A stretch of 15,163 nt of DNA from positions 1-15,163 of the forward strand of contig CBDAFS010000025.1 in the NCBI GenBank assembly GCA_965195285.1, given 5' to 3'. The stretch is from an uncultured Aminicenantes bacterium. Its GTDB lineage: Bacteria > Acidobacteriota > Aminicenantia > UBA2199. The position numbers and the translations under genes were made by a program. Every line of letters begins with the position of its first letter. Positions within the stretch are counted from its first letter, which is position 1. Under the pieces are notes generated by a model, which was given only the letters and a program-made list of their open reading frames with translations, was not told the origin of the DNA and made no database searches. Of this stretch, positions 1 to 15,163 are shown piece after piece.

Positions 1-602
1 CCCAGGGACCAGATGTCGGAACGGTGATCCATTTTGTCTCCGGTTGCCTGTTCCGGAGACATGTAGGCCACGGTTCCCAATGTGGTTCCCTCTTTGGTGA
101 GTTTGGTCTGACCTTTCAGTTTGGCCAAGCCAAAATCCAGGATCTTTGCCACTCCTTCATGGGTGATGATAATATTAGCTGATTTGATATCACGATGAAC
201 AATTCCTTTTTGATGGGCTTTATCAAGTCCTTCGGCGATCTGGATGGCGATGTTGATGGCTTCATGTATGGGTAAGGGCGAACCGCCATTCGCCCCTACA
301 CCTGAAATTTTATCTTTTAATGTCTGGCCTTCGTAATAGGCCATGACTATGAACATTTGCCCGTCTTCGGTTTCATCGATTTCAAAGATATTGCAGATGT
401 TGGGGTGGTCCAGGGCAGAGGCGGCGCGTGCCTCATGCAGAAACCGCTTTTTGGCTTCCCTGTCGCTGGTTAGTTGAGGCGGCAGGAATTTCAAGGCAAC
501 CGTTCGCTTGAGTTTGGTGTCTTCCGCCTTATAGACCACCCCCATACCACCTGCACCAATTTTTTCTAATATCTTGTAATGAGAAACAGTTTTTCCAATC
601 AT
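1..602 (-). CDS. Hanks-type Ser/Thr protein kinase, N-terminal catalytic domain (runs off the left edge)
   Basis: Manual translation from ATG at 602 is open to the window edge: MIGKTVSHYKILEKIGAGGMGVVYKAEDTKLKRTVALK...HPNI...HRDIKSANI...KILDFGLAK...GTVAYMSPEQ...DIWSL. Gly-rich loop, VAxK lysine, HRD, DFG and SPE motifs are present. Absent from the ORF track because it has no stop in the window. Confidence 0.96.
   Translation of the reverse strand, partial: MIGKTVSHYKILEKIGAGGMGVVYKAEDTKLKRTVALKFLPPQLTSDREAKKRFLHEARAASALDHPNICNIFEIDETEDGQMFIVMAYYEGQTLKDKISGVGANGGSPLPIHEAINIAIQIAEGLDKAHQKGIVHRDIKSANIIITHEGVAKILDFGLAKLKGQTKLTKEGTTLGTVAYMSPEQATGDKMDHRSDIWSL
272..299. repeat. GTAG-type REP-like imperfect palindrome inside the kinase CDS
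   Basis: Minus strand reads GTAGGGGCGAA-TGGCGG-TTCGCCCTTAC. The 11-bp arms match at 10/11 around a 6-nt loop, the element begins with GTAG, and it encodes VGANGGSPL. Confidence 0.7.
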
Positions 603-1054: not shown

Positions 1055-1083
1055 TTGACTATTTGGCCCAAAATCCATATAAT
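1055..1083 (+). promoter_or_regulatory. Sigma70-type promoter of the ATPase gene
   Basis: TTGACT (1055-1060), 17 bp spacer, TATAAT (1078-1083). ATG at 1090 lies at the expected +1. Confidence 0.75.
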
Positions 1084-1089
1084 AATTCC

Positions 1090-2256
1090 ATGAATGATTA
1101 TGTATATAGAGTTTTAACCAACGATATCTTGAGAAAATTAAAAAATATACCCGTAGTGGCTATACTTGGACCCAGACAATGCGGTAAATCAACATTGGTC
1201 AAAAAGTTACTTCCATCACTGAAAAACAACATTTACCTGGACTTGGAGCGTCCATCAGACATGAATAAACTCAGGGATGCCGAGGCCTTCTTTAGACTCA
1301 ATAAAGATAAGCTAATTTGCCTGGATGAGATCCAGAGAAGCCCGCAACTGTTTCCTTTGATACGCAGTGTGGTTGACGAAAGCGATAAAAACGGGCAGTT
1401 TATTATACTGGGTTCCGCCTCACCAGACCTAATAAAACAGAGTTCTGAATCCCTGGCCGGACGTATTTCTTATCTGGAATTAACACCATTTTTAATCCAG
1501 GAGTTGATACAGAATGACGGTATAGAGGAATTAAGGAAAATATGGTTGAGGGGAGGTTTCCCCAGGAGCTATCTGGCAGCTGATGAAACCGATAGTTTTG
1601 AGTGGCGAATAGATTTTATCCGCGCTTTTTTAGAACGAGATATCCCCAATCTGGGTTTTAAAATAGCCACAAAGAATATGGAAAGATTATGGAAGATGTG
1701 TGCCCATATTCATGGGCAGGTGCTTAACCGTTCAAAACTGGGAGAGTCTCTGGGAGTGTCTCATCATACTGTGCAATCCTACCTGGATATACTTTCTGAA
1801 ACATTCATTCTAAGGGTTTTACCTCCCTTTGAAGCCAACCTGAAAAAACGACTGATCAAATCTCCAAAAATCTTTGTTCGGGACTCAGGTCTCCTGCATG
1901 CACTGCTGCTTATCGAGGGGCAAAACGATCTTTTTGGCCACCCGGTTTATGGTGCCTCCTGGGAAGGTTTTGCCATGGAGAATATTCTCTCTTCTATCTC
2001 CAATTGGCAGGCTTCCTTTTTCAGGACGGCTTCTGGGGCTGAAGTGGATTTAATCCTGGAGAAAGGAACCAGGCGCGTTGCTGTTGAATTCAAGGTGTCC
2101 ACCTCACCTTTGGTTTCAAGGAGTTTCTGGACTGCTCTCGAAGATATAAAACCTGAGGAAGCCTGGATTATAGCTCCGATTGAAGAATCCTATCCCATAA
2201 AAGGAAGCGTCCAAGTCGCACCTCCCCAGATCCTGATTTCCAAGCTGCAGCGTTGA
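1090..2256 (+). CDS. AAA+ family ATPase (AAA_14 plus DUF4143-type C-terminal domain)
   Basis: Walker A GPRQCGKST, Walker B ICLDEIQ, family motifs LGSAS, SESLAGR, RGGFP, KSPKIFVRDSGL, and a C-terminal EVDL...VEFK motif. ATG 1090 is preferred over TTG 1063, which lies inside the promoter spacer. Confidence 0.9.
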   Translation: MNDYVYRVLTNDILRKLKNIPVVAILGPRQCGKSTLVKKLLPSLKNNIYLDLERPSDMNKLRDAEAFFRLNKDKLICLDEIQRSPQLFPLIRSVVDESDKNGQFIILGSASPDLIKQSSESLAGRISYLELTPFLIQELIQNDGIEELRKIWLRGGFPRSYLAADETDSFEWRIDFIRAFLERDIPNLGFKIATKNMERLWKMCAHIHGQVLNRSKLGESLGVSHHTVQSYLDILSETFILRVLPPFEANLKKRLIKSPKIFVRDSGLLHALLLIEGQNDLFGHPVYGASWEGFAMENILSSISNWQASFFRTASGAEVDLILEKGTRRVAVEFKVSTSPLVSRSFWTALEDIKPEEAWIIAPIEESYPIKGSVQVAPPQILISKLQR

Positions 2257-2357: not shown

Positions 2358-3395
2358 TTAGATTTTTGACAATTTATCCCAGTAATCTTTGGGCATTTCC
2401 CGGGCCATGGTCAGGGCGCCGTTGGCTCCGACAAAAAGCGGGTCATCCACAATTTTTACCTGGCAGTGGCCATATTCTTTCATGGAATCTTCCAGGTATT
2501 CCCGGATTCCCTTGATCTGGCTTCCGCAACCGGCAATAACAATATTATTCCTGATTTTATTCTGGTATTCCGGATCAAACTTGGCAATCATCTCGGCCAG
2601 GGTTTCAATGATCGGAGGGAAGACGCTTTCACAGGATTTTTTGATCTCATCGGTAATATTGTGAATGGTGGGTTTACCCGCCACCGGTATCTTTACTTTT
2701 ACAGGATTCTGGCTGTTGCCCACAAAGCTGTTTTCCTCTTTAAAGGAGCGGACCATGTTCAGGTTGAAGGCGGATTCGGGGTGTTTATCCTTCAGCAGGT
2801 TGAATAAATGCTGGTCGATGTAATCTCCGGCGGTCAGAATGGTGCGCTGATCTTCCTCAAGCGGGATGGTACCGTGCATGATGCAAAAATCAACGGTTCC
2901 GGCACCGATATCGATGATCAGGGCATTGTTCAGTAAATTCATGCCATAGGCCACGGCAAAGGGTTCGGAAACCACGATGATGGAATGAACAAAATCGGAT
3001 ACGGCGTTGCGAATGGCCATGCGGTTGACCTTGAATGATTCGGCCGGCACGCCGACCACGGCCAATACCTTCTGGTCCTGATCGGGTTTTACCAGACCGA
3101 TCAGGTGGCGGATCAGTTCTTTGACCGATTCCTCATCCTTTTCGGTTCCCTCTTTGATGACCCCGCGCTCCAGAGGTTTGCGGATGTCCAGGGATAATCT
3201 ATTCTTGATGGCTTCCATTCCGAACAGTATGGGTTTTTTTACCACTTTGGCCGCAATAAAGTCTTTGGGCCAGCCCACATAGCTTTCAGTCCAGTTTTTG
3301 ATCCCATTGCTGGCCACAATGGCACTGCTGGATGTTCCCAGGTCAATGCCGACGAATAAATTTTCATTTTTTCCCGGTGTTGCTTCCTGTTCCAT
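2358..3395 (-). CDS. MamK-like actin-family ATPase
   Basis: Phosphate-1 GIDLGTS, catalytic-Glu segment VVSEPF, phosphate-2 DIGAGT, adenosine motif AGCGSQI. Segments recalled as MamK-typical and not MreB-typical: SYVGWPKD, VGVPA, GTIPxxEDQ, KEENSFVG, AGKP, F-D-PEYQ and a C-terminal P-x-x-YW-x-x-L. SD GGGAGG lies upstream. No symbol is given because orthology to magnetosome MamK is unproven. Confidence 0.88.
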   Translation of the reverse strand: MEQEATPGKNENLFVGIDLGTSSSAIVASNGIKNWTESYVGWPKDFIAAKVVKKPILFGMEAIKNRLSLDIRKPLERGVIKEGTEKDEESVKELIRHLIGLVKPDQDQKVLAVVGVPAESFKVNRMAIRNAVSDFVHSIIVVSEPFAVAYGMNLLNNALIIDIGAGTVDFCIMHGTIPLEEDQRTILTAGDYIDQHLFNLLKDKHPESAFNLNMVRSFKEENSFVGNSQNPVKVKIPVAGKPTIHNITDEIKKSCESVFPPIIETLAEMIAKFDPEYQNKIRNNIVIAGCGSQIKGIREYLEDSMKEYGHCQVKIVDDPLFVGANGALTMAREMPKDYWDKLSKI

Positions 3396-3414
3396 GATGC
3401 ACCTCCCTTGGCTT

Positions 3415-4464
3415 TTATTTACTGTTTTTTTGGTTTAAATAAATCACGATGCCTTCCTCTAAAAATTGGGCAATTTCTTCCCGATAATGCTCCTGGTTTA
3501 ATTTTTTTTCTTCCAGATGATTGCTGAGACAGGTCACTTCTGAAAGCACGCTGGGGATATCTACTCCCAGGAGGACGATGAATGGGGCTTTTCTGACTCC
3601 CCAGTCTTCAATGTCCCGGTGGTGTTTGCTGATGTTCCGGAATAAACTCTTCTGGATGCACAGGGCGAGCAGATTGGATTCCTGGGTTTTGATGGTGTTG
3701 CCAATTTTCTTGATGATGTCTTTAAAATCACTCAGGGTATACTGGGTCCCTTTATTTTCCTGTTCCACCAGTGAGAGGGTGTTTTTATCCGAATTGGGAC
3801 CGAAAAAGTAAGTTTCAATAACATTGGTAGGCCGGTTGGGTATATAATTAACGTGAATGGAAATATAGATGTCTGCCTGGCGAGTGTTGGCAAAATTGAT
3901 CCGGTCTTCAAGTGACAGATGGATATCGGTTTCCCGGGTCATCAATACCTTGTAGGTCTGGTACCGGTTTAGTCGATTGCGCAGCTTTCGACCTATGTCA
4001 AGGGTAATGTCTTTTTCACGGGTTCCCAGCTTTCCGATGGCCCCGGGATCCTTGCCGCCGTGGCCGGGATCGATGATGATGGTTTTGACCTTCAACCCGA
4101 ATATCCGGCTGATCGGGGTTTGCAGGTTGTTCAAGAAGCTTTGGTATTGTGAGGGGGTAGAGTTGCTGAGACGGGAACTGAGCCGGTCGGAATCCTCGGT
4201 CGGACTGAGGGAGCCGGAATCTGAAATTTGGTATTTCTTGTACTGATAAAAGGGATTTTTGTGCAGGCTTGAGTGATTGAATACCAGGTAAGCGGTCATC
4301 ATCAGCAGAGCCATGGACCCAATCATGGTGAGGGTGGTGATGATGCGCTGTCTTTTCTGGTAACTGTATTCCTGGCCCATCATCCTCAGGTTTTCCTCGT
4401 AAACGCCCCTGAGAATGGTTCTTTTGATCTGGACCGGTCTTTTTTTAAAACTGAAGATGTTCAT
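3415..4464 (-). CDS. N-acetylmuramoyl-L-alanine amidase (Amidase_3), membrane anchored
   Basis: IIIDPGHGGKDPGA, REKDITL, ISIHVN and PSVLSEV supply the His/Glu/His zinc ligands and the catalytic Glu. One hydrophobic helix at about aa 42-62 is followed by a Ser-rich linker. Confidence 0.93.
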   Translation of the reverse strand: MNIFSFKKRPVQIKRTILRGVYEENLRMMGQEYSYQKRQRIITTLTMIGSMALLMMTAYLVFNHSSLHKNPFYQYKKYQISDSGSLSPTEDSDRLSSRLSNSTPSQYQSFLNNLQTPISRIFGLKVKTIIIDPGHGGKDPGAIGKLGTREKDITLDIGRKLRNRLNRYQTYKVLMTRETDIHLSLEDRINFANTRQADIYISIHVNYIPNRPTNVIETYFFGPNSDKNTLSLVEQENKGTQYTLSDFKDIIKKIGNTIKTQESNLLALCIQKSLFRNISKHHRDIEDWGVRKAPFIVLLGVDIPSVLSEVTCLSNHLEEKKLNQEHYREEIAQFLEEGIVIYLNQKNSK

Positions 4465-4515
4465 TTTGATTCCATCATTCGGATTTTATTCAAAAAACCG
4501 CCTCCTTCTGAATAA

Positions 4516-4544
4516 AGTATAAAATAAAATCAATTTTTTTCCAA
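4516..4544 (-). promoter_or_regulatory. Candidate sigma70 promoter of the amidase-actin unit
   Basis: Minus strand TTGGAA (4544-4539), 17 bp spacer, TATACT (4521-4516), followed by SD AAGGAGG at 4507-4501. Confidence 0.5.
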
Positions 4545-4646
4545 ATTTTACCCTATTATTTCAAAAAAAAAATAGCCTGTTTCAAGCCCCATGTTTTTCG
4601 ATTCCGATGTCAAACACGACTTTAATGTAAAGCCCTGTCCCTGGCA

Positions 4647-4675
4647 TTGACAAATAGAAATTCCACTGTCATAAT
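4647..4675 (+). promoter_or_regulatory. Sigma70 promoter of the J-domain gene
   Basis: TTGACA (4647-4652), 17 bp spacer, CATAAT (4670-4675), with an extended -10 TG. Confidence 0.7.
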
Positions 4676-4684
4676 AAACCGGGG

Positions 4685-6412
4685 ATGATGATGCCGGTAT
4701 CCACTCAAACATATCCGATTTCACTGGTGCTGAAAAATATATTGACCGACCGCTTCAGCGGGGAACTGGTCATCAAAAAAAACAACCTCAACAAAAGCCT
4801 GTATTTTCAGGACGGGGATCTTGTATTTGCCCGGAGTGATGTTTTTGACGAGCGTATAGGGGTAATCCTGTATCTGCTGGGTAAACTCGATGATCAGCAA
4901 TATGAATATATCCGCAAGCTTTACCATTCCAATGACCTTGAGATCGGAGATATTTTGGTCCAGAATCAATTTATAACCCGAGATGATCTTTTTTATACTA
5001 CCCTTTTCCAGATGAAAAAAGCGGCTATCAATGCCTTTAAACTCAGCAAAGCCGAATGGGAAATGAATACCCAGGAGGTGAATTTTGAGCTGAATCCGGA
5101 ACAGCGGATTCAATTGCCTCCGATCATTGTCGAAGGAGCCCGGAAAATAGAGGACCTGTCATTTTTCCTGAGTAAAATTCAATTTCTGACTCCCCGAACC
5201 TCCCGGATTCCGGAACCGTTGAAGCAGTTGCTAACCGGTGAAGAGATTTCCCTGTACCGTCGGCTTCAGGACTGTAAACACATGTCCAACCGGGAGGTAA
5301 TTTCCAAGTTGAACCTGGATCCCCAGTTTTACTGGAAAAACATGGTGTTGTTCATACTGCTTGATATCATTGATTTTGCCCGGAACCGCCTTGAATACAG
5401 TATAGAAGATAATATCCGGAAGCTCATCGAATTTCAGGCCAAACTCAAGCAGAAGAACCTGGACCCATATCAGATTCTGGGTGTTTCCAATTCGGCCTCA
5501 AAAGCCGAATCCAAGCTGGCTTTCCTGAAATTGTCCAGACAATTTCATCCCGACCGTTACGGTTCGGCAGCGGCACCGGAGATCAAGCGGATCGCCGGTT
5601 ATGTGTTCAAGCAAATCGAAACCGCCTACAAAGGTTTGAAGAAAAAGTATAAAAAGAGCCGGACTAAAGTGCGGGAAAAGGACCGGGTCATCATGGAGGA
5701 AATTGAAAATCTGAATTTCAACCAGGATATTAACGAGAACTTTGAAATTGATCTGGAGGGTTCGGACGATCCGGAAGCCTCTGAACCGGATAAGGCGGAA
5801 ATGATTGAAATCGAGAGGGATATTCAAAAAGAAATGTACGGAGATATACAGGAGCCTGTTCCTGAACCGGAGGAGGAACCCGGTCCTTCAATTATTTCAG
5901 TTAAGGAAGAGATGAACGAAATCATTGAGCCCGGTATCTTAAAAACCGGGGAAGTCCCGATTCAGGATAAGGACCGGGAAAAAGAGGTTGTCCCGCCCAA
6001 GGTATCGGAAGCCGATATCCTGGAAGATGCAGAAGCGCTCTATTCCGAAAAAAAGTATCATGAGGCCAATAGAATTCTAAAGGCAGCTTTGAAAAAAAAT
6101 CCCGACAGGGCGGAATACCATTATCTCTTAGGGCTCTGTCAGACCCATATGGAGTTTTTTCAGGAGGAAGCGGAGCGGCATCTGAAAAAGGCTGTTGAGT
6201 TGAATCCCTGGAATTCCGATCCGGTTTATGCCCTGGGAATTTTGTTCCGGATCCAGGGGAAGACAAAGCAGGCTGCGACCTGTTTTGAACGGGTGATGAG
6301 GATCTCCAAAGACCACAGCAAAGCGGTGAAAGCCATGAGGGAACTTTCAAAAAGAAAACGAAAAAAAAGCTCCCTGTTTCCTTTTTTGAAAAAGGAAAAC
6401 AGGGGAAAATAG
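4685..6412 (+). CDS. Multidomain co-chaperone-like protein: DUF4388/PATAN-like N-terminus, J domain, acidic linker, TPR repeats
   Basis: N-terminal FSGELVI...KSLYFQDGDLVFARS...ERIG..L...G pattern. J domain DPYQILGV...LSRQFHPDRY...FKQIETAY with intact HPD at 5546-5554. Glu/Pro-rich linker. C-terminal TPR-like units (AEYHYLLG, AVELNPWN, YALG). Start is uncertain among ATG 4685, 4688 and 4691. Confidence 0.85.
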   Translation: MMMPVSTQTYPISLVLKNILTDRFSGELVIKKNNLNKSLYFQDGDLVFARSDVFDERIGVILYLLGKLDDQQYEYIRKLYHSNDLEIGDILVQNQFITRDDLFYTTLFQMKKAAINAFKLSKAEWEMNTQEVNFELNPEQRIQLPPIIVEGARKIEDLSFFLSKIQFLTPRTSRIPEPLKQLLTGEEISLYRRLQDCKHMSNREVISKLNLDPQFYWKNMVLFILLDIIDFARNRLEYSIEDNIRKLIEFQAKLKQKNLDPYQILGVSNSASKAESKLAFLKLSRQFHPDRYGSAAAPEIKRIAGYVFKQIETAYKGLKKKYKKSRTKVREKDRVIMEEIENLNFNQDINENFEIDLEGSDDPEASEPDKAEMIEIERDIQKEMYGDIQEPVPEPEEEPGPSIISVKEEMNEIIEPGILKTGEVPIQDKDREKEVVPPKVSEADILEDAEALYSEKKYHEANRILKAALKKNPDRAEYHYLLGLCQTHMEFFQEEAERHLKKAVELNPWNSDPVYALGILFRIQGKTKQAATCFERVMRISKDHSKAVKAMRELSKRKRKKSSLFPFLKKENRGK

Positions 6413-6447
6413 ATCCGGGTACGCAAAAAGGAAATGAGGTGGCTGAC

Positions 6448-7029
6448 ATGAAGATGTTCAGATTAACAGGGTTTTGTTTGGTGTTGATTCTGCTGGCCGG
6501 ATGTGCCGGCAAAAAGGCGGGTACCGAACCGTCAACCATGATTGATGTTCCCAAGCTGAATATTGCACCGGATCCGGGAATGTACAAAGTTCTCCAGGTG
6601 ATCAAGCGGTTTGGGAATAAGACCATAGATCACCTGAGCTATGCCGAGGTTAAGAAACGGGAAGCCACAGCGCAAAATGCCACATTTAATCCGGATGTGT
6701 TCTATGACCAGTATGTGCTGGACCTGAATGAAAAAAATTACTGGATTACCGTCACATTCCGGACAGCGACTCGGGCCAGGAGAAGGGATTCCCGCATTCG
6801 GGATCTGATGCAAAATTTTCCTGAAAATGCCATTGATATGCTGTTGAAAACACCCGCCAATAAAATCTTTTTATTGAGTGACAGCAATGGTGACGGTGTG
6901 CTTGATTTTGCCAGACCCGAGGGCAAACAGCATAAGCTGACCGTGGATATCGAATTCCTCAAGGCTATGCAGCAGAAGTATGGCTGGATTCTGGGTATTA
7001 TCAAACGCCACTATAAACGAAATAAATAA
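6448..7029 (+). CDS. Putative lipoprotein of unknown function
   Basis: MKMFRLTGFCLVLILLAG-C signal with lipobox LAGC. GAGGTG lies 6 nt before ATG 6448 (the ORF track starts at GTG 6439). Contains a DSNGDG motif. Confidence 0.8.
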   Translation: MKMFRLTGFCLVLILLAGCAGKKAGTEPSTMIDVPKLNIAPDPGMYKVLQVIKRFGNKTIDHLSYAEVKKREATAQNATFNPDVFYDQYVLDLNEKNYWITVTFRTATRARRRDSRIRDLMQNFPENAIDMLLKTPANKIFLLSDSNGDGVLDFARPEGKQHKLTVDIEFLKAMQQKYGWILGIIKRHYKRNK

Positions 7030-7371: not shown

Positions 7372-10140
7372 TTAGGGTGCCTTGGGGTTGTCAACCAGCA
7401 GTTCATTCAGTTTTTCAATTAATTTTTCCAGGGTAAAGGGTTTTTGAATAAATCCGGCCAGGCCTTTTCCCACAAAAAAACTGGTGGCATCCTGCTCGTT
7501 GTAGCCGCTGATCAATATCACTTTCGCATCCGGATTCATCTGCCGAAGTTGCTTGAAGACCTCATCCCCGTTCATTTCCGGCATGGTTGTGTCCAGTAAA
7601 ACCAGGAATATGCTGTCCCCGTGTTCGCGGTATATTTCGATTCCCTCCCTGCCGTTGGCCGCTTCAATAACCTTCATATCATGGCTCTTTAGCATGTCCC
7701 TAATCACTTCCCGGACAGTTTGTTCATCATCCACCACCAGTACCGTCTTGCCGCCCAGCTCGGCCTGTTTGGTGGTTTCAAGGGGGATCTTTTTCGGTTT
7801 TATCGTCTTTTCCGCGGGAAACAATACCTTGATGGTGGTTCCCTGGCCGAGTTCGCTGTACACTTTAATGGCCCCCTTGTGACCGCGTACGATTCCCAGC
7901 ACTGCGGCCATGCCCAGCCCGTGGCCCTTGAATTTGGTAGTGAAGAAAGGATCGAATATTTTTTCCTGAGTGGCCTTGTCCATACCAATGCCATTATCCG
8001 AGATTTCAAGGAATACATACTCGCCTTCCGGTATATTATCGCTAAAAAAGGTTTCAATCAGATATGTGTCGTCCACTGTCATAATATTGGTCCGGACCGA
8101 AATAACACCGACTTTGTCTTCGATGGCTTCAGAGGCGTTAACGATCAGGTTCATGATCACCTGGCTGATCTGGGATACATCGGCCTCGATATCCGGCAGG
8201 TCCTGGCTGAAATCATAGCGTATGCTCACGTTTTTTGAAATTGACACCTTGAGCAGCTGGGTCATCTCCTCGACCAGTTCCGACAGGTTCACCGGCTGGA
8301 TCACAAATTTACCCTTCCCCGAGTAGGCTAACATCTGATTGGTGAGCTTGGCGGCCTGGTGGGATGATTTTTCGATTTTTTCAACATATTGTTTGGCTTC
8401 GATGGGGTTGTCCAGGCTCTTCAGGGTGAGGCTGGCATTGCCCAGGATACCCATCAGTAAATTATTGAAGTCATGGGCGATGCCCCCGGCCAGCACCCCA
8501 AGGCTCTCCAATTTCTGGCTGTGCTGGATCTGGGCATGAAGCCTCTGGCGTTCTTCCTCCAGTCGCCGGCGGTCGGTGATTTCCCTATCGATTCCCCGGT
8601 AACCCAGCAGATTGCCCTTCCCATCAAAAAACGGGAGTCCGTTGGTATCCAGTATAACGGTGTGGCCGTCCTTGTGGATGTTCTTGTTTTCCAGTCCGAT
8701 GATAGGGAGGCGATCTGCCACCTTCCGGTTGAATAGTTTTTCCACCCGGGCGGTTTCGTTCCGGGCTATCAATTCAAGTTTGTTCTTTCCCAGCATCTCC
8801 TCGGGCCGAAAACCGAGCAGGTCCATGCATTTCGGACTGACATAGGTGTACACCCCGTTTTGATCCACTTCCCAGATGAAGTCATGGGTGGTTTCCACCA
8901 GGGAACGGAAGCGCTCTTCGCTCTCCTTCAATCCCCGGGAGGCCCGCTCCTTATCGGTCCTGAGTAGTCTCATTCGATCGGCCAGGGCCAGTGATATCAA
9001 TAACATGAACAAGATAATTCCCAGGGAGAAACCGTGATCGAAGTGGGGATTGCTGCGTATCATTCCCAGCCTGACCAGCAGATGGTTGATGCCGCTGATA
9101 CCGATGGCGGCAATCCCGATTAAATAGTAACGGGCCGGGTGAAATCCCTTTACCATGGAATTGATGCCGATAAGCAGCAGCAATACGGCCCCCAGGATTC
9201 CCCAGATAACCATGGAGCGGACGATAAGCCGGTAGTTGAGGATAGGAATCAGCACTACCAGCAACATCATTCCAATCAGGTGGATGTTGGCGAATTTGTG
9301 GGCCAGGGGCATCTTTTTTTTGGCCATTAAAAAGTAGTCGGTGAATTTGATGATGGACATGGCCATCAGACTGCCAAAAAAGGGCAGAGCCATCTGGTTC
9401 CACGAGGTGAGCTTGGGCCAGAGATAGGCAAAGGTGATGCCATTGGCGGTCAAAGAGAAAAAAAGACAGGCGGCAATTGCCAGGATATAATATAGATAGC
9501 TCCTGTCTCTCAGCAAAAAAAACAGAAAAGCATGAAACCCGATCATGATCAGCAGAATACCGGTGAATGCCCCGAGCAGGATATGGCTGGATTGGCTTCG
9601 CTTCATAAACCGGGTCATGGACCACAGGATCAGGGGGATAGTCATGGATTCATCGTTTTGAAAACGCAAGTATACGGTCTGGAGGGTGTTTTTGGGCAGG
9701 GGGAGAAGAAAAACCATGTGATGGTATGGATAATCACGGGTTTCTACCGGCAGCAGGGTGCCGGTTTTTTTGGCTCTCATCAGCTGACCCGATTCAGTCA
9801 GATGGTAAAGATCGGCATAATGCATGTTGGGATAGTCCAGTTCCAGGGTCCAGGGCGAGCGGGTGCTGGCCCGGTTTAATACCCTGAAGCGTACCCAGAT
9901 AGCCGAGCGGGTAAATCCCAGGTTGGGCACCCGTTCCCGGTTGGGTTTGAACCGTAAACTGTATTCCGGTGAGGTGACCTGCTCCAAAGTCAATTCTGCC
10001 CCGGGATCCTCCAATATCTCCAGGTACAATCCCAGCGGGTATTTTTGCTGGTTATCTTTCAGGGTCAGAATTTTCTGGCTCCTTAATAACCCACTGAATA
10101 TCAATATGAAAGAAAATAGATAGACTTTAATTCTGAACAT
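7372..10140 (-). CDS. Hybrid sensor histidine kinase: 7TMR-DISM extracellular domain, 7TM, PAS, HisKA, HATPase_c, receiver
   Basis: NLGFTRSAIWVRF in the extracellular domain, seven hydrophobic segments ending in LSLALADR-like ISLALADR, PAS (FIWEVD...YTYVSP...LLGF...GYRGIDREIT), H-box GGIAHDFNNLL, N-box NLIVNA, DNGIGM, FFTTK, GLGM, and receiver LVVDDE...LLDTTMP...FIQKPF. The start may be ATG 10140 or GTG 10155. TTG 10161 overlaps the -10 box. Confidence 0.95.
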   Translation of the reverse strand: MFRIKVYLFSFILIFSGLLRSQKILTLKDNQQKYPLGLYLEILEDPGAELTLEQVTSPEYSLRFKPNRERVPNLGFTRSAIWVRFRVLNRASTRSPWTLELDYPNMHYADLYHLTESGQLMRAKKTGTLLPVETRDYPYHHMVFLLPLPKNTLQTVYLRFQNDESMTIPLILWSMTRFMKRSQSSHILLGAFTGILLIMIGFHAFLFFLLRDRSYLYYILAIAACLFFSLTANGITFAYLWPKLTSWNQMALPFFGSLMAMSIIKFTDYFLMAKKKMPLAHKFANIHLIGMMLLVVLIPILNYRLIVRSMVIWGILGAVLLLLIGINSMVKGFHPARYYLIGIAAIGISGINHLLVRLGMIRSNPHFDHGFSLGIILFMLLISLALADRMRLLRTDKERASRGLKESEERFRSLVETTHDFIWEVDQNGVYTYVSPKCMDLLGFRPEEMLGKNKLELIARNETARVEKLFNRKVADRLPIIGLENKNIHKDGHTVILDTNGLPFFDGKGNLLGYRGIDREITDRRRLEEERQRLHAQIQHSQKLESLGVLAGGIAHDFNNLLMGILGNASLTLKSLDNPIEAKQYVEKIEKSSHQAAKLTNQMLAYSGKGKFVIQPVNLSELVEEMTQLLKVSISKNVSIRYDFSQDLPDIEADVSQISQVIMNLIVNASEAIEDKVGVISVRTNIMTVDDTYLIETFFSDNIPEGEYVFLEISDNGIGMDKATQEKIFDPFFTTKFKGHGLGMAAVLGIVRGHKGAIKVYSELGQGTTIKVLFPAEKTIKPKKIPLETTKQAELGGKTVLVVDDEQTVREVIRDMLKSHDMKVIEAANGREGIEIYREHGDSIFLVLLDTTMPEMNGDEVFKQLRQMNPDAKVILISGYNEQDATSFFVGKGLAGFIQKPFTLEKLIEKLNELLVDNPKAP

Positions 10141-10160
10141 TTTTACTATACTCACACCCA

Positions 10161-10190
10161 ATTATAGCATTATAAAAAGTAATATTTCAA
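10161..10190 (-). promoter_or_regulatory. Sigma70 promoter of the hybrid kinase
   Basis: Minus strand TTGAAA (10190-10185), 18 bp spacer, TATAAT (10166-10161), with an extended -10 TG. Confidence 0.65.
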
Positions 10191-10213
10191 CTGGAAGGCA
10201 ATTAATGCGGTTT

Positions 10214-11251
10214 TTATTTTTCCGGTTCTTCTTCCTCTTTTTTATCCCTTTTCTTCAGGTCCTTGATCAATTGCTTGACACTGCTGATCGATTCACTGAT
10301 CAATTTTTTCTGGTGTTTCGATAACTTTTTGCTTTCCAGGACATGCTTTTCGATTTCCTGTTGAATATCGTCCAGAGAGGGAATGTTTTTAAAGTCCATT
10401 GCTTCAACCTGCTTGAGTTCGATAATGAGTTTTTCTTTTTCTTTGTCCAGTTTTTTGAGCAATTCGTCATAATGGAAATTTTCAAACTTGAATCCGGATA
10501 GTTTGATTTTAAACTGGCTCAGAAGGTTCTTTTTTCTGATGGCCAGGCCTTTTTCATCGGTTTTTATTTTCCCCTCTTCAATCACGTAGTGTCCCTTTTT
10601 CAGCTGATCGCAAACATAAACGTACAGTTTTTTTTCCTTTTCCTTTGAGGAGTCGCGGGCGCTCAACAGGATGGCCCCGATTTTAAGGGCCTCGGTGATG
10701 AATGGTTTGACCCCTTCAGATACCAGTTTTTCCTGGTTACCAAAATTTTCATGTATCTCTTTGATTTTTTCTGGTTCACGGGGCAGGTCCATTTTGAATT
10801 CGTAATCGGTCTCGGCATATCCGAAATCCTTGAATTTCATCTTGACCAGTTCCTCTTTTTGCCGGGGCTGGCTGGAGGGGGAGTATAAATGCGAGTGTTC
10901 GTAGACGGCCTGGGGGGTGGTGCCCAGTGAAAAATATAGTTTGGAGTCGGTGATGACCTTGCCGTTGTCCAGAACGGTGATCTTACCCGGCCGGTTCCAG
11001 TCGGTGATGCCGGCCATGATTCCGAATGACAGGGATAAGAAGAAAACGATGGCAATGGCCGCGGTCCATGGATGGCTCTCGGATACGATCTCCTTTTGCT
11101 TGAAGGCGTCCCGGGTTTTTTTCCGGCTTCTCATGAACAATATACTGAGTGTGATGATGGCCAGTATGGCAATGATATAGCATACCACCTTAAAAAGGGG
11201 GTGTTGAAGAATGGGCCCCACAAATGACGTAATGGCTGAAACCGTGCTCAT
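10214..11251 (-). CDS. Membrane protein with two N-terminal TM helices, a divergent SPFH/Band-7-like domain and a C-terminal coiled coil
   Basis: Two hydrophobic helices (about aa 19-39 and 62-82). The segment VKMKFKDFGYA...LPREPEKIKEIHENFGNQEKLV...VKP...DQLKKGHY...FKIKLSGFKFENFHYD resembles divergent SPFH domains as recalled. Lys/Glu-rich helical tail. SD GAGGAG. The CDS is secure, the SPFH call is tentative. Confidence 0.6.
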   Translation of the reverse strand: MSTVSAITSFVGPILQHPLFKVVCYIIAILAIITLSILFMRSRKKTRDAFKQKEIVSESHPWTAAIAIVFFLSLSFGIMAGITDWNRPGKITVLDNGKVITDSKLYFSLGTTPQAVYEHSHLYSPSSQPRQKEELVKMKFKDFGYAETDYEFKMDLPREPEKIKEIHENFGNQEKLVSEGVKPFITEALKIGAILLSARDSSKEKEKKLYVYVCDQLKKGHYVIEEGKIKTDEKGLAIRKKNLLSQFKIKLSGFKFENFHYDELLKKLDKEKEKLIIELKQVEAMDFKNIPSLDDIQQEIEKHVLESKKLSKHQKKLISESISSVKQLIKDLKKRDKKEEEEPEK

Positions 11252-14645: not shown

Positions 14646-14696
14646 TTAAACCAAGCGATGGGAAATTATTACATTCATTTAACAGGAGGTTGGTTC

Positions 14697-15163
14697 ATGA
14701 AAAGAGTAATGGTTATTGTTTTTTTGGTTTTGTTTTTTATTAGTACTTTTTTACTCATGGCCGGACGTTTTCCTCACCGGGGAACCGGAGTCTCTATCTG
14801 GTTTCCAAATCACTGGGAAGTACGCCAGGTCGGAGAAGCCTATTACGGGATTTCCCCCGACGGTCAGGCAGTGGTGCAGTATATCCGGTTGGAAGCCCAC
14901 AACATGAAACAGGCTCGAAAAACCTTTCGGCCGTCTCTGGAACCCCAAATTCAAGACTTCCGGATTACCCGGGAGGGGCCTCGGTTTACCCGCAACAACC
15001 TTTTTTTCAAGACTATTTACGGAGAAGCCCGTCATAAGCGGGCAAACTGGGTCGTTACTGTTTTGCTGGTTCAAACGCCCCGGGCCATGGGCATGTTACT
15101 GCTGAGACGCATGGAAAGGGCCGGGAGCTACAAGGTGCCCTTCACCAATATTATGGAAAGCCT
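14697..15163 (+). CDS. Exported hypothetical protein, possibly PsbP/DcrB-like fold (runs off the right edge)
   Basis: SD AGGAGG, ATG 14697, frame open to the edge: MKRVMVIVFLVLFFISTFLLMA-GRFPHRGTGVSIWFPNHWEVRQ...SPDGQAVVQY...FTNIMES. The signal peptide is clear. The fold is guessed only from the GxSIxxPxxW start and the F..I..S end. Missed by the ORF track. Confidence 0.8.
   Translation, partial: MKRVMVIVFLVLFFISTFLLMAGRFPHRGTGVSIWFPNHWEVRQVGEAYYGISPDGQAVVQYIRLEAHNMKQARKTFRPSLEPQIQDFRITREGPRFTRNNLFFKTIYGEARHKRANWVVTVLLVQTPRAMGMLLLRRMERAGSYKVPFTNIMES

Follow-up and report, generated by a model that had tools for sequence, protein, structure and literature searches.

A MamK-family actin gene linked to the gene for a membrane-anchored amidase in Acidobacteriota and Nitrospirota: a candidate cytoskeleton-to-cell-wall module

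The stretch of DNA analyzed for the current report (here called the window; 15,163 bp) is one complete contig, C25, of the genome of an uncultured Aminicenantes bacterium (3.28 Mb in 62 contigs, 94.9% complete). It carries, side by side, a gene for a peptidoglycan amidase that is predicted to be anchored in the membrane and a gene for an actin-like ATPase of the MamK family, and the same pairing recurs in many genomes of the Acidobacteriota and Nitrospirota. Our preferred reading, which we hold with slightly better than even confidence, is that the two products constitute a conserved cytoskeleton-to-cell-wall module, in which a filament of the actin would dock a helix in the cytoplasmic tail of the amidase and would thereby position amidase activity in the periplasm. 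It has long been asked how bacteria direct cell-wall hydrolases that could kill them; the known ways include targeting by periplasmic AMIN and SPOR domains, by FtsEX-EnvC and, as described recently, by a bactofilin to which an M23 peptidase is bound through its tail. Two large phyla, most of whose members are uncultured, appear to have a MamK-family actin tied firmly to an amidase; if our reading is true, the module would add a third actin system to MreB and FtsA in the carrier cells and would give MamK-type actins a function outside of magnetotaxis.

The gene pair and its conservation

The pairing was traced in two independent samples of genomes. When one genome per species was scanned by pattern, 59 loci with genes for relatives of the actin emerged; 57 of them have upstream DNA, and at 47 of these 57 an amidase gene (detected by tblastn with the window amidase) lies immediately upstream of the actin gene and in the same orientation. 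The other 12 of the 59 loci comprise two without upstream DNA on their contigs (L004 and L046) and ten from Planctomycetota or Geobacteraceae, which have no amidase gene and whose orphan actins are only 36-44% identical to the actin of the window. The second sample consisted of 401 genomes from the phylum of the window. A profile search detected the actin in 30 of them, one being the host, and the amidase gene is directly upstream at all 29 loci besides that of the window, even at actin identities of 43-58%. Several of the Acidobacteriota carriers, among them G590, G600 and G640, have genome sequences that are closed or nearly so. The linkage that the initial annotation had read from this one stretch is thus conserved across genomes (47/57 and 29/29 loci with upstream DNA). 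In most of the closer relatives, the amidase alignment also covers the N-terminal tail of the protein (query start at residue 1-14).

One Nitrospiraceae metagenome-assembled genome (MAG) has three copies of the amidase-actin pair (contigs L030, L047 and L062), and two of its three actin copies match in broken pieces that might represent frameshifts, pseudogenes or assembly errors. Locus L039 (genome G003) is titled Chloroflexota, yet was drawn as a member of the Nitrospirota (the phylum of G001); the NCBI titles of some carrier MAGs (L039, L006 and L040; Chloroflexota, Clostridia and perhaps Desulfobulbaceae) may overstate the number of phyla in which the pair resides.

In the window itself, the coordinates of the open reading frames (ORFs) and a GGGAGG ribosome-binding site agree with the initial description of two co-oriented genes that are 19 nt apart and separated by a Shine-Dalgarno sequence, with a convergent gene downstream and a divergent gene upstream. 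No mam, mms, mad, feo, mreCD or par gene was recognized among the 13 ORFs of the window by Pfam and NCBIfam, as had also been surmised, and the sole "MamA" match there is a generic TPR match of 55 bits, against a cut-off of 200. The further idea of a self-contained two-gene unit stands in regard to the adjacent, co-oriented pair and has to be relaxed in regard to a strict limit of two genes, since close relatives add a third gene downstream.

The actin passes the cut-off of the NCBIfam model for MamK (NF040964), with 430.9 bits versus 400 over profile positions 1-332 of 335 (431.3 bits in a genome-wide search), and remains below the cut-offs for other members of the actin family, i.e., BeeR (224.3 versus 530), MreB (80.7 versus 293), FtsA (26.5 versus 175.85) and salactin (26 versus 400). 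The solved MamK 5ljw is matched over the full length of the actin (E 1.3e-88, 300 bits) and the next solved actins are far weaker matches (150 bits for the BeeR-like 8r2n and 48 bits for MreB). The motifs that bind the phosphates and adenosine of the nucleotide are kept, VVSEPF and DIGAGT being conserved in the alignment with 5ljw. In an alignment of 27 orthologues of the actin, in which mean column identity is 83%, D162 does not vary and E144 is kept by at least 90% of the sequences; they align with E143 and D161 of MamK, to which roles in the actin-fold ATPase are ascribed. NCBIfam cut-offs, PDB matches and the trees described below all agree with the assignment, made at the outset, of the protein as MamK-like rather than MreB or another named actin-like protein, and on these comparisons it belongs to a distinct and slowly evolving MamK-type subfamily linked to an amidase. 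The host carries its own MreB-like gene (on contig C35) and a bona fide FtsA (404 bits).

Longer relatives of the actin are also in evidence: 21 proteins of 617-1319 aa match at E <= 1e-30 (P0122-P0142). Several of these long MamK-like actins are titled candidate division KSB1, and in most of those checked the actin domain is C-terminal, after a long unannotated N-terminal extension; in P0130 the actin domain is N-terminal and is accompanied by a PilZ domain.

Relation of the actin to magnetosome MamK

That the actin passes the NCBIfam cut-off for MamK is what might be expected of a displaced or remnant magnetosome mamK in a magnetotactic host. The rest of the host genome argues otherwise: its best scores are 83 bits for MamA (cut-off 200), 175 bits for MamE (cut-off 800) and 89 bits for MamO (cut-off 800), all at the level of generic TPR or HtrA-type proteins, and MamI has no match, MamB, MamM, MamP and MamQ not having been searched for. 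The MamI model is known to work, as it gave 14 strong matches among 401 Nitrospirota genomes. With no magnetosome genes found by the MamA, MamE, MamO and MamI models, the initial placement of this actin outside of any magnetosome cluster is upheld.

The same 401 Nitrospirota genomes allow a direct comparison with true magnetosome mamK genes. Each of the 14 MamI-positive genomes has a MamK-family gene (15 loci in total), which in 12 of the 14 shares a contig with mamI, at a distance of ~6-8 kb. The MamK proteins of these clusters are 41-45% identical to the window actin, and the amidase-linked actins of the Nitrospirota are 59-66% identical to it, across a phylum boundary. No amidase gene is present within the 1.5-kb flanks at any of the 15 magnetosome-cluster loci. 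Scores with the actin profile are bimodal, 24 being at 599-715 bits and the 14 of the magnetotactic genomes at 351-380 bits. No Nitrospirota genome has both types of actin; ~0.8 such genomes would be expected if the two were distributed independently, so that the zero count does not demonstrate exclusion of one type by the other.

In trees of 70 and 76 proteins, magnetosome-cluster MamK and the Planctomycetota orphans form one clade (SH-aLRT 100) that excludes all of the amidase-linked actins. Both trees are quick searches, the second one having been made after 23 near-duplicate Nitrospirota rows were dropped, and the branch to the MreB outgroup exceeds 8 changes per site and leaves the basal forks and the root without resolution; we therefore make no claim as to which form of MamK is older. 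Taken together, the low MamA, MamE and MamO scores and the missing MamI match in the 94.9%-complete genome, the separate clade and lower identity of magnetosome-cluster MamK, the lack of an amidase gene at its loci and the bimodal scores lead us to regard a stray magnetosome gene as effectively excluded.

The Planctomycetota and Geobacteraceae loci were also inspected, and no neighbors of magnetosome type (cation efflux, LemA or magnetochrome) were found there. One Geobacteraceae MamK-family gene (L057:275-2171), on a contig of 5.5 kb without visible magnetosome genes, is located between two genes for single-domain receivers; its product has a long branch within the clade of magnetosome-cluster MamK.

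The amidase and the motif in its cytoplasmic tail

The only Pfam domain of the 349-residue amidase is Amidase_3 (E 4.6e-43, 147.7 bits). The protein begins with a tail of 41 residues, 10 of which are K or R and 3 of which are D or E, as fits an N-in topology; the tail is followed by the lone strong hydrophobic segment outside the catalytic core, at residues 42-62, and by a low-complexity linker that extends to the Amidase_3 domain. This arrangement fits a type-II membrane protein with its enzyme on the outside, and the predicted topology is that of a bitopic protein with a periplasmic catalytic domain of the AmiA/B/C type. The cleavable export signal and AMIN domain that characterize AmiB and AmiC are missing: the segment at residues 42-62 has the appearance of an uncleaved anchor and there is no Pfam match for AMIN, nor for LysM or SPOR, which is in keeping with the basic tail of ~40 residues and the lack of targeting domains that had been noted from the translation.

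An AlphaFold2 model of the amidase (alignment of 32 sequences; mean pLDDT 75.8) is confident in the catalytic domain and otherwise has a helix at residues 10-28, a long helix at 32-67 and a disordered linker at 68-121. E. coli AmiA (8c2o, the top match), AmiC (4bin) and AmiB-EnvC (8c0j) are among the best Foldseek matches for this model. The profile of the amidase family runs unbroken through the regulatory insert, located between core strands, of AmiC 4bin, Bartonella AmiB 3ne8 and AmiA 8c2o, and reaches only to about position 220 in CwlV, AmiC2, CwlD and LytH, which are enzymes without the insert; this alignment suggests that the enzyme belongs to the regulated, cell-separation type. In the model, the insert region has helices at 227-236 and 244-254 (pLDDT 62-73). 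H135, E150, H204 and E309, which we take to be the zinc ligands and the catalytic Glu, are invariant across 32 orthologues.

Outside the catalytic domain, the best-conserved segment of the amidase in the same 32 sequences is residues 12-30 of the tail, and the transmembrane helix and linker vary freely. Its consensus is x-I-L-R-G-V-Y-E-E-N-L-R-I-x-G-K, in which N25 is invariant and L18, L26 and G30 occur in at least 90% of the sequences. The tail helix is amphipathic, with a hydrophobic moment of 0.96 per residue, and conserves the pattern (K/R)-x-I-L-(R/K)-G-V-Y-E-E-N-L. A loose regular expression of the ILRGVYEENL type matches 68 of 70 amidase N-termini, the two others being one that is cut by a contig end and one near variant; more distant Acidobacteriota have versions such as RLLSELVQDNVDLIQG and SILKDAIRENVDVIEG. 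The invariant polar residues would be more readily explained by a protein interface than by a helix that simply lies on the membrane surface.

A similar motif occurs beside MamK-family genes that have no amidase neighbor. Of the 15 magnetosome-cluster loci, 14 have, immediately before mamK and ending 32-430 nt from it, an ORF of 114-239 aa that closes with L-(R/K)-x-I-V-x-E-N-I-x-L (for example ALLRGVLQDNIML, SFLKSIVMENVEL and AFLRNIVNENIDL), and an alignment of 13 of these ORFs has an invariant L and an invariant N seven residues apart, the spacing of L18 and N25 in the amidase. In seven of the Planctomycetota orphans, the motif is near the C-terminus of the upstream ORF (for example GMLKVVFEQNVRLRQE, AMLRQIFEQNRLLREQ and SMLSQIYQQNLHLRDQ). 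At 10 of 25 non-amidase loci, the locus-wide top hit of a hidden Markov model (HMM) made from amidase tails alone lies within the C-terminal 45 residues of the ORF just upstream of the actin gene, a zone that makes up 0.2-1.5% of the six-frame residues per locus, such that ~0.2 loci would be expected by chance (computed by hand); one of the ten (L106) is a dubious ORF of 36 residues. Among the motif tests, only this test of position is clearly above chance. We regard the evidence for a candidate docking peptide that is shared across MamK-family contexts as real but moderate. The contact of tail and filament suggested in the initial annotation is supported indirectly by the conservation of the tail motif and by its counterpart in the partners of other MamK-family genes. 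Because a similar peptide is present on the neighbor of true mamK, a result on docking would also bear on the attachment of magnetosomes to MamK in deep-branching magnetotactic bacteria.

Five of the proteins encoded upstream of mamK were compared with NCBIfam and belong to no family there, apart from a CheW-like N-terminus in one. The latter (L108:652-1368(+)) is a fusion of the CheW-like domain (78 bits, below the cut-off) to a coiled-coil and the C-terminal motif.

It can be imagined from these occurrences that the MamK family is a general cargo-positioning cytoskeleton for which the upstream gene supplies an adaptor with the portable helix phi-L-(R/K)-x-(I/V)-(V/Y)-x-E-N-phi-x-L, the adaptors being the amidase in Acidobacteriota and Nitrospirota, a coiled-coil protein in the magnetosome clusters of Nitrospirota and an unknown protein in Planctomycetota. 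We offer this joint reading tentatively, as one that has a fair way to go before it would be the expected answer. If it were true, the magnetosome chain would be one specialization of an older system whose commonest use is to steer cell-wall cleavage, and the motif would let MamK adaptors be predicted in any genome.

A different explanation is that the two genes are linked by function and not by contact, i.e., that they are co-expressed for one process, such as cell separation or the response to envelope stress, and that the tail binds another factor or the membrane. Conserved adjacency alone is no proof of binding, an amphipathic helix might lie on a membrane, and the statistics of the motif are marginal for single sequences. 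Against this explanation, the motif recurs specifically in the gene that immediately precedes a MamK-family actin gene, and does so in three contexts that have no other protein family in common, and the spacing is tight, as in the 19 nt of the window; on balance we think it improbable that contact plays no part.

Several observations also have to be set against docking of the amidase by the actin, as we prefer to read the pair. An hhalign alignment that places amidase-tail positions 7-34 on C-terminal positions 174-201 of the mamK-upstream partner (P 0.024) speaks for a shared motif only marginally, with a probability of 2%. Single hits with the broader tail HMM are statistically weak (best E 0.049, versus 2.5 in reversed sequences), and those of a narrower HMM, built from 41 close tails and applied to six-frame translations of the 25 non-amidase loci, are not significant (E 0.25, versus 0.63 reversed). 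Moreover, the partners at the 15 magnetosome-cluster loci are homologous to each other and count as about one observation, so that the motif evidence comes from about three independent families and not ten. No amidase-actin fusion exists among the 21 longer relatives of the actin, none of which has an Amidase_3 domain, and their extensions are without the tail motif, in that the motif HMM scores them no better than reversed controls. Polymerization of the actin and activity of the amidase are assumed from homology. Finally, the actin was found in none of the 11 other genomes of the host's family, and the host already has FtsA, MreB and two further Amidase_3 genes, which indicates that the module is an accessory one.

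Operon variants, a possible mechanism and known systems

The genes that follow the pair differ between lineages. At 31 loci of the Nitrospirota type, a third co-oriented gene comes after the actin gene, and a representative product runs from a receiver-like domain (Pfam Response_reg) through an acidic linker, a transmembrane helix and a Pro-rich linker to a SPOR domain (Pfam SPOR). Domains of this last type bind glycan strands that have been stripped of their peptides, which are the product of amidases. The window operon is without a SPOR gene, and the three SPOR proteins of the host are encoded elsewhere. One of these (413 aa; G000:C21, L076:1474-2715(-)) is a PP2C phosphatase followed by a transmembrane segment and a SPOR domain, an architecture that parallels the receiver protein of the Nitrospirota, and the module of the host has a Ser/Thr kinase nearby.

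Within the subgroup to which the window belongs, L004 and L006 have the gene for a PknB-like Ser/Thr kinase directly after the actin gene, the kinase of L006 having TPR repeats. The actin of L004 is 97% identical to that of the window, and its kinase gene begins ~150 nt after the actin gene. In the window, actin and kinase genes are parted by 1.7 kb (within 603-2357) that contain the convergent AAA_14/DUF4143 gene and include the lowest-GC part of the window (0.35 at 501-1500). Since L004 is without this stretch and has its kinase gene next to the actin gene, the AAA_14/DUF4143 stretch is probably a recent insertion, and the kinase gene is likely to be the original third gene of the operon in the window's lineage. 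The DNA of window and L004 is 78% identical in the kinase gene and 96% identical in the actin gene.

Proteins with DUF4388 (PATAN) recur near the pair in four loci, most of them with DnaJ and the window copy also with TPR; in the window and L005 the gene is divergently upstream, and L006 and L020 have it no more than a few kb from the pair. The DUF4388 protein is possibly an accessory part of the amidase-actin module. The coordinates of these and the other features are collected in Table 1.

Table 1. Features of the window around the amidase-actin pair, and DUF4388 homologues at related loci
Feature	Position	Strand	Remarks
PknB-like Ser/Thr kinase gene, 5' part	3..602	-	contig end cuts the gene; Pkinase E 5.5e-42
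AAA_14/DUF4143 ATPase gene	1063..2256	+	convergent, downstream of the actin gene
MamK-family actin gene, amidase-linked subfamily	2358..3395	-	345 aa actin-like ATPase; ORF list
Spacer between amidase and actin genes	3396..3414	-	19 nt with GGGAGG ribosome-binding site ahead of the actin ATG
Amidase gene	3415..4464	-	349 aa; ORF list
Amidase_3 catalytic domain with putative regulatory insert	3448..4080	-	aa 129-339; Pfam
Predicted transmembrane signal-anchor	4279..4341	-	aa 42-62; mean Kyte-Doolittle hydropathy 1.75 over 19 aa
Conserved cytoplasmic helix motif, candidate actin-docking peptide	4375..4431	-	amidase aa 12-30, QIKRTILRGVYEENLRMMG
Divergent intergenic region	4465..4684	.	promoter-like hexamers facing the amidase operon and the DUF4388 gene; consensus matches only
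DUF4388 (PATAN)-DnaJ-TPR protein gene	4685..6412	+	575 aa; divergent; Pfam matches
DUF4388 homologues at other loci	L005:4-1386; L006:4-1131 and 9465-11201; L020:8271-10037	-	

The promoter-like hexamers 5' of the amidase gene, at 4544-4516 and 4512-4483 of the minus strand, are 9-of-12 consensus matches only, and the region has 14 sites of this quality versus 7.9 +/- 2.9 in shuffled sequence. The remaining genes of the window look ordinary and encode a 7TMR-DISM hybrid histidine kinase, an Asp/Glu racemase, a sodium:alanine symporter, a metallo-beta-lactamase-fold protein and an ABM monooxygenase; the ORFs at 6439-7029(+), 10214-11251(-) and 14658-15161(+), of 168-345 aa, matched no Pfam or NCBIfam family at the thresholds applied.

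If the amidase and actin work as a module, the actin would polymerize beneath the membrane into membrane-proximal filaments, the tail helix of the amidase would dock on the filament, and the filament would set where, when or whether the amidase strips peptides from peptidoglycan. A second, periplasmic step of activation would likely be needed, because the auto-inhibitory insert of AmiA/B/C appears to be kept. The third genes, whether for the Ser/Thr kinase or for the receiver-SPOR protein of Nitrospirota, would probably connect the module with signalling and with the denuded glycan that results from amidase action.

The polarity of the partnership might also be the reverse, such that the amidase, perhaps weakly active or inactive, serves mainly to anchor the filament to membrane and wall and the real cargo is something else, for example a storage granule, the nucleoid, a polar complex or the products of the neighboring kinase or DUF4388 genes. 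MamK is known to position an organelle, the tail-type motif is also found on the non-enzymatic coiled-coil partners of magnetosome clusters and in Planctomycetota, as befits a general adaptor tag, and the actin is far more conserved than the amidase (mean column identities of 83% and 55%, respectively). These arguments are countered by the invariance of the putative zinc ligands and catalytic Glu and the apparent conservation of the insert, which argue for a working, regulated enzyme, by the SPOR partner of the Nitrospirota, which points to the product of the amidase being made, and by the lack of any candidate cargo gene that is conserved across lineages. We consider an anchoring amidase unlikely, and retain the view that the actin positions the enzyme.

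Among known systems, the division machinery of E. coli brings together FtsA, the amidases AmiA/B/C and FtsN, the last with a cytoplasmic domain, a transmembrane segment, a Pro-rich linker and a SPOR domain. The amidase-actin pair resembles it in having an actin-fold protein and an amidase of the AmiA/B/C type with a putative insert and, in the Nitrospirota relatives, a bitopic SPOR protein; it differs in that the host has its own FtsA, the window amidase is membrane-anchored and without AMIN, and the window operon has no SPOR gene. Magnetosome MamK (Magnetospirillum magneticum; 5ljw, 5jyg, 5ljv; NF040964) is alike in its full-length match above the cut-off, its ATPase motifs and an upstream partner with a similar helix motif, and unlike in that no magnetosome genes were found in the window host, the actin belongs to a separate clade and its partner is a peptidoglycan amidase.

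A search of the full-text literature, subscription journals and bioRxiv supplements lying outside it, brought up no account of a MamK-type actin that has an amidase as its partner. In the part drawn on here, a paper on chromosomal ParM has a sporulation amidase only as a neighbor in a figure legend (PMC12270681), and the part consulted of a paper on Mad proteins gives no MamK-binding motif (PMC12748827). Bbp, a MamK-like actin of large non-magnetotactic bacteria that occurs beside MreB, is stated in the portion of its report used here to be of unknown function, to fall between MamK and MreB and to have a gene that shares its operon with one hypothetical and one Kelch-like gene (PMC10580974); by the full-text search, the word amidase does not occur in that paper. 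Compared by that description only, it is similar to the window actin in being MamK-like, present outside magnetotactic bacteria and additional to MreB, and different in the makeup of its operon.

The closest working analogue is the bactofilin BacA and the bitopic M23 endopeptidase LmdC of Hyphomonas neptunium and Rhodospirillum rubrum, for which the portion of the source used here describes a tail of LmdC that binds the polymer directly and a polymer that recruits the enzyme (PMC10945521). As far as that portion permits comparison, both systems have a polymer gene that adjoins the gene for a bitopic hydrolase with a short, conserved N-terminal cytoplasmic tail; the window pair, which we know from its sequence, would instead have an actin-fold ATPase as the polymer, Amidase_3 rather than M23 as the enzyme, and a predicted helix rather than a beta-hairpin in the tail.

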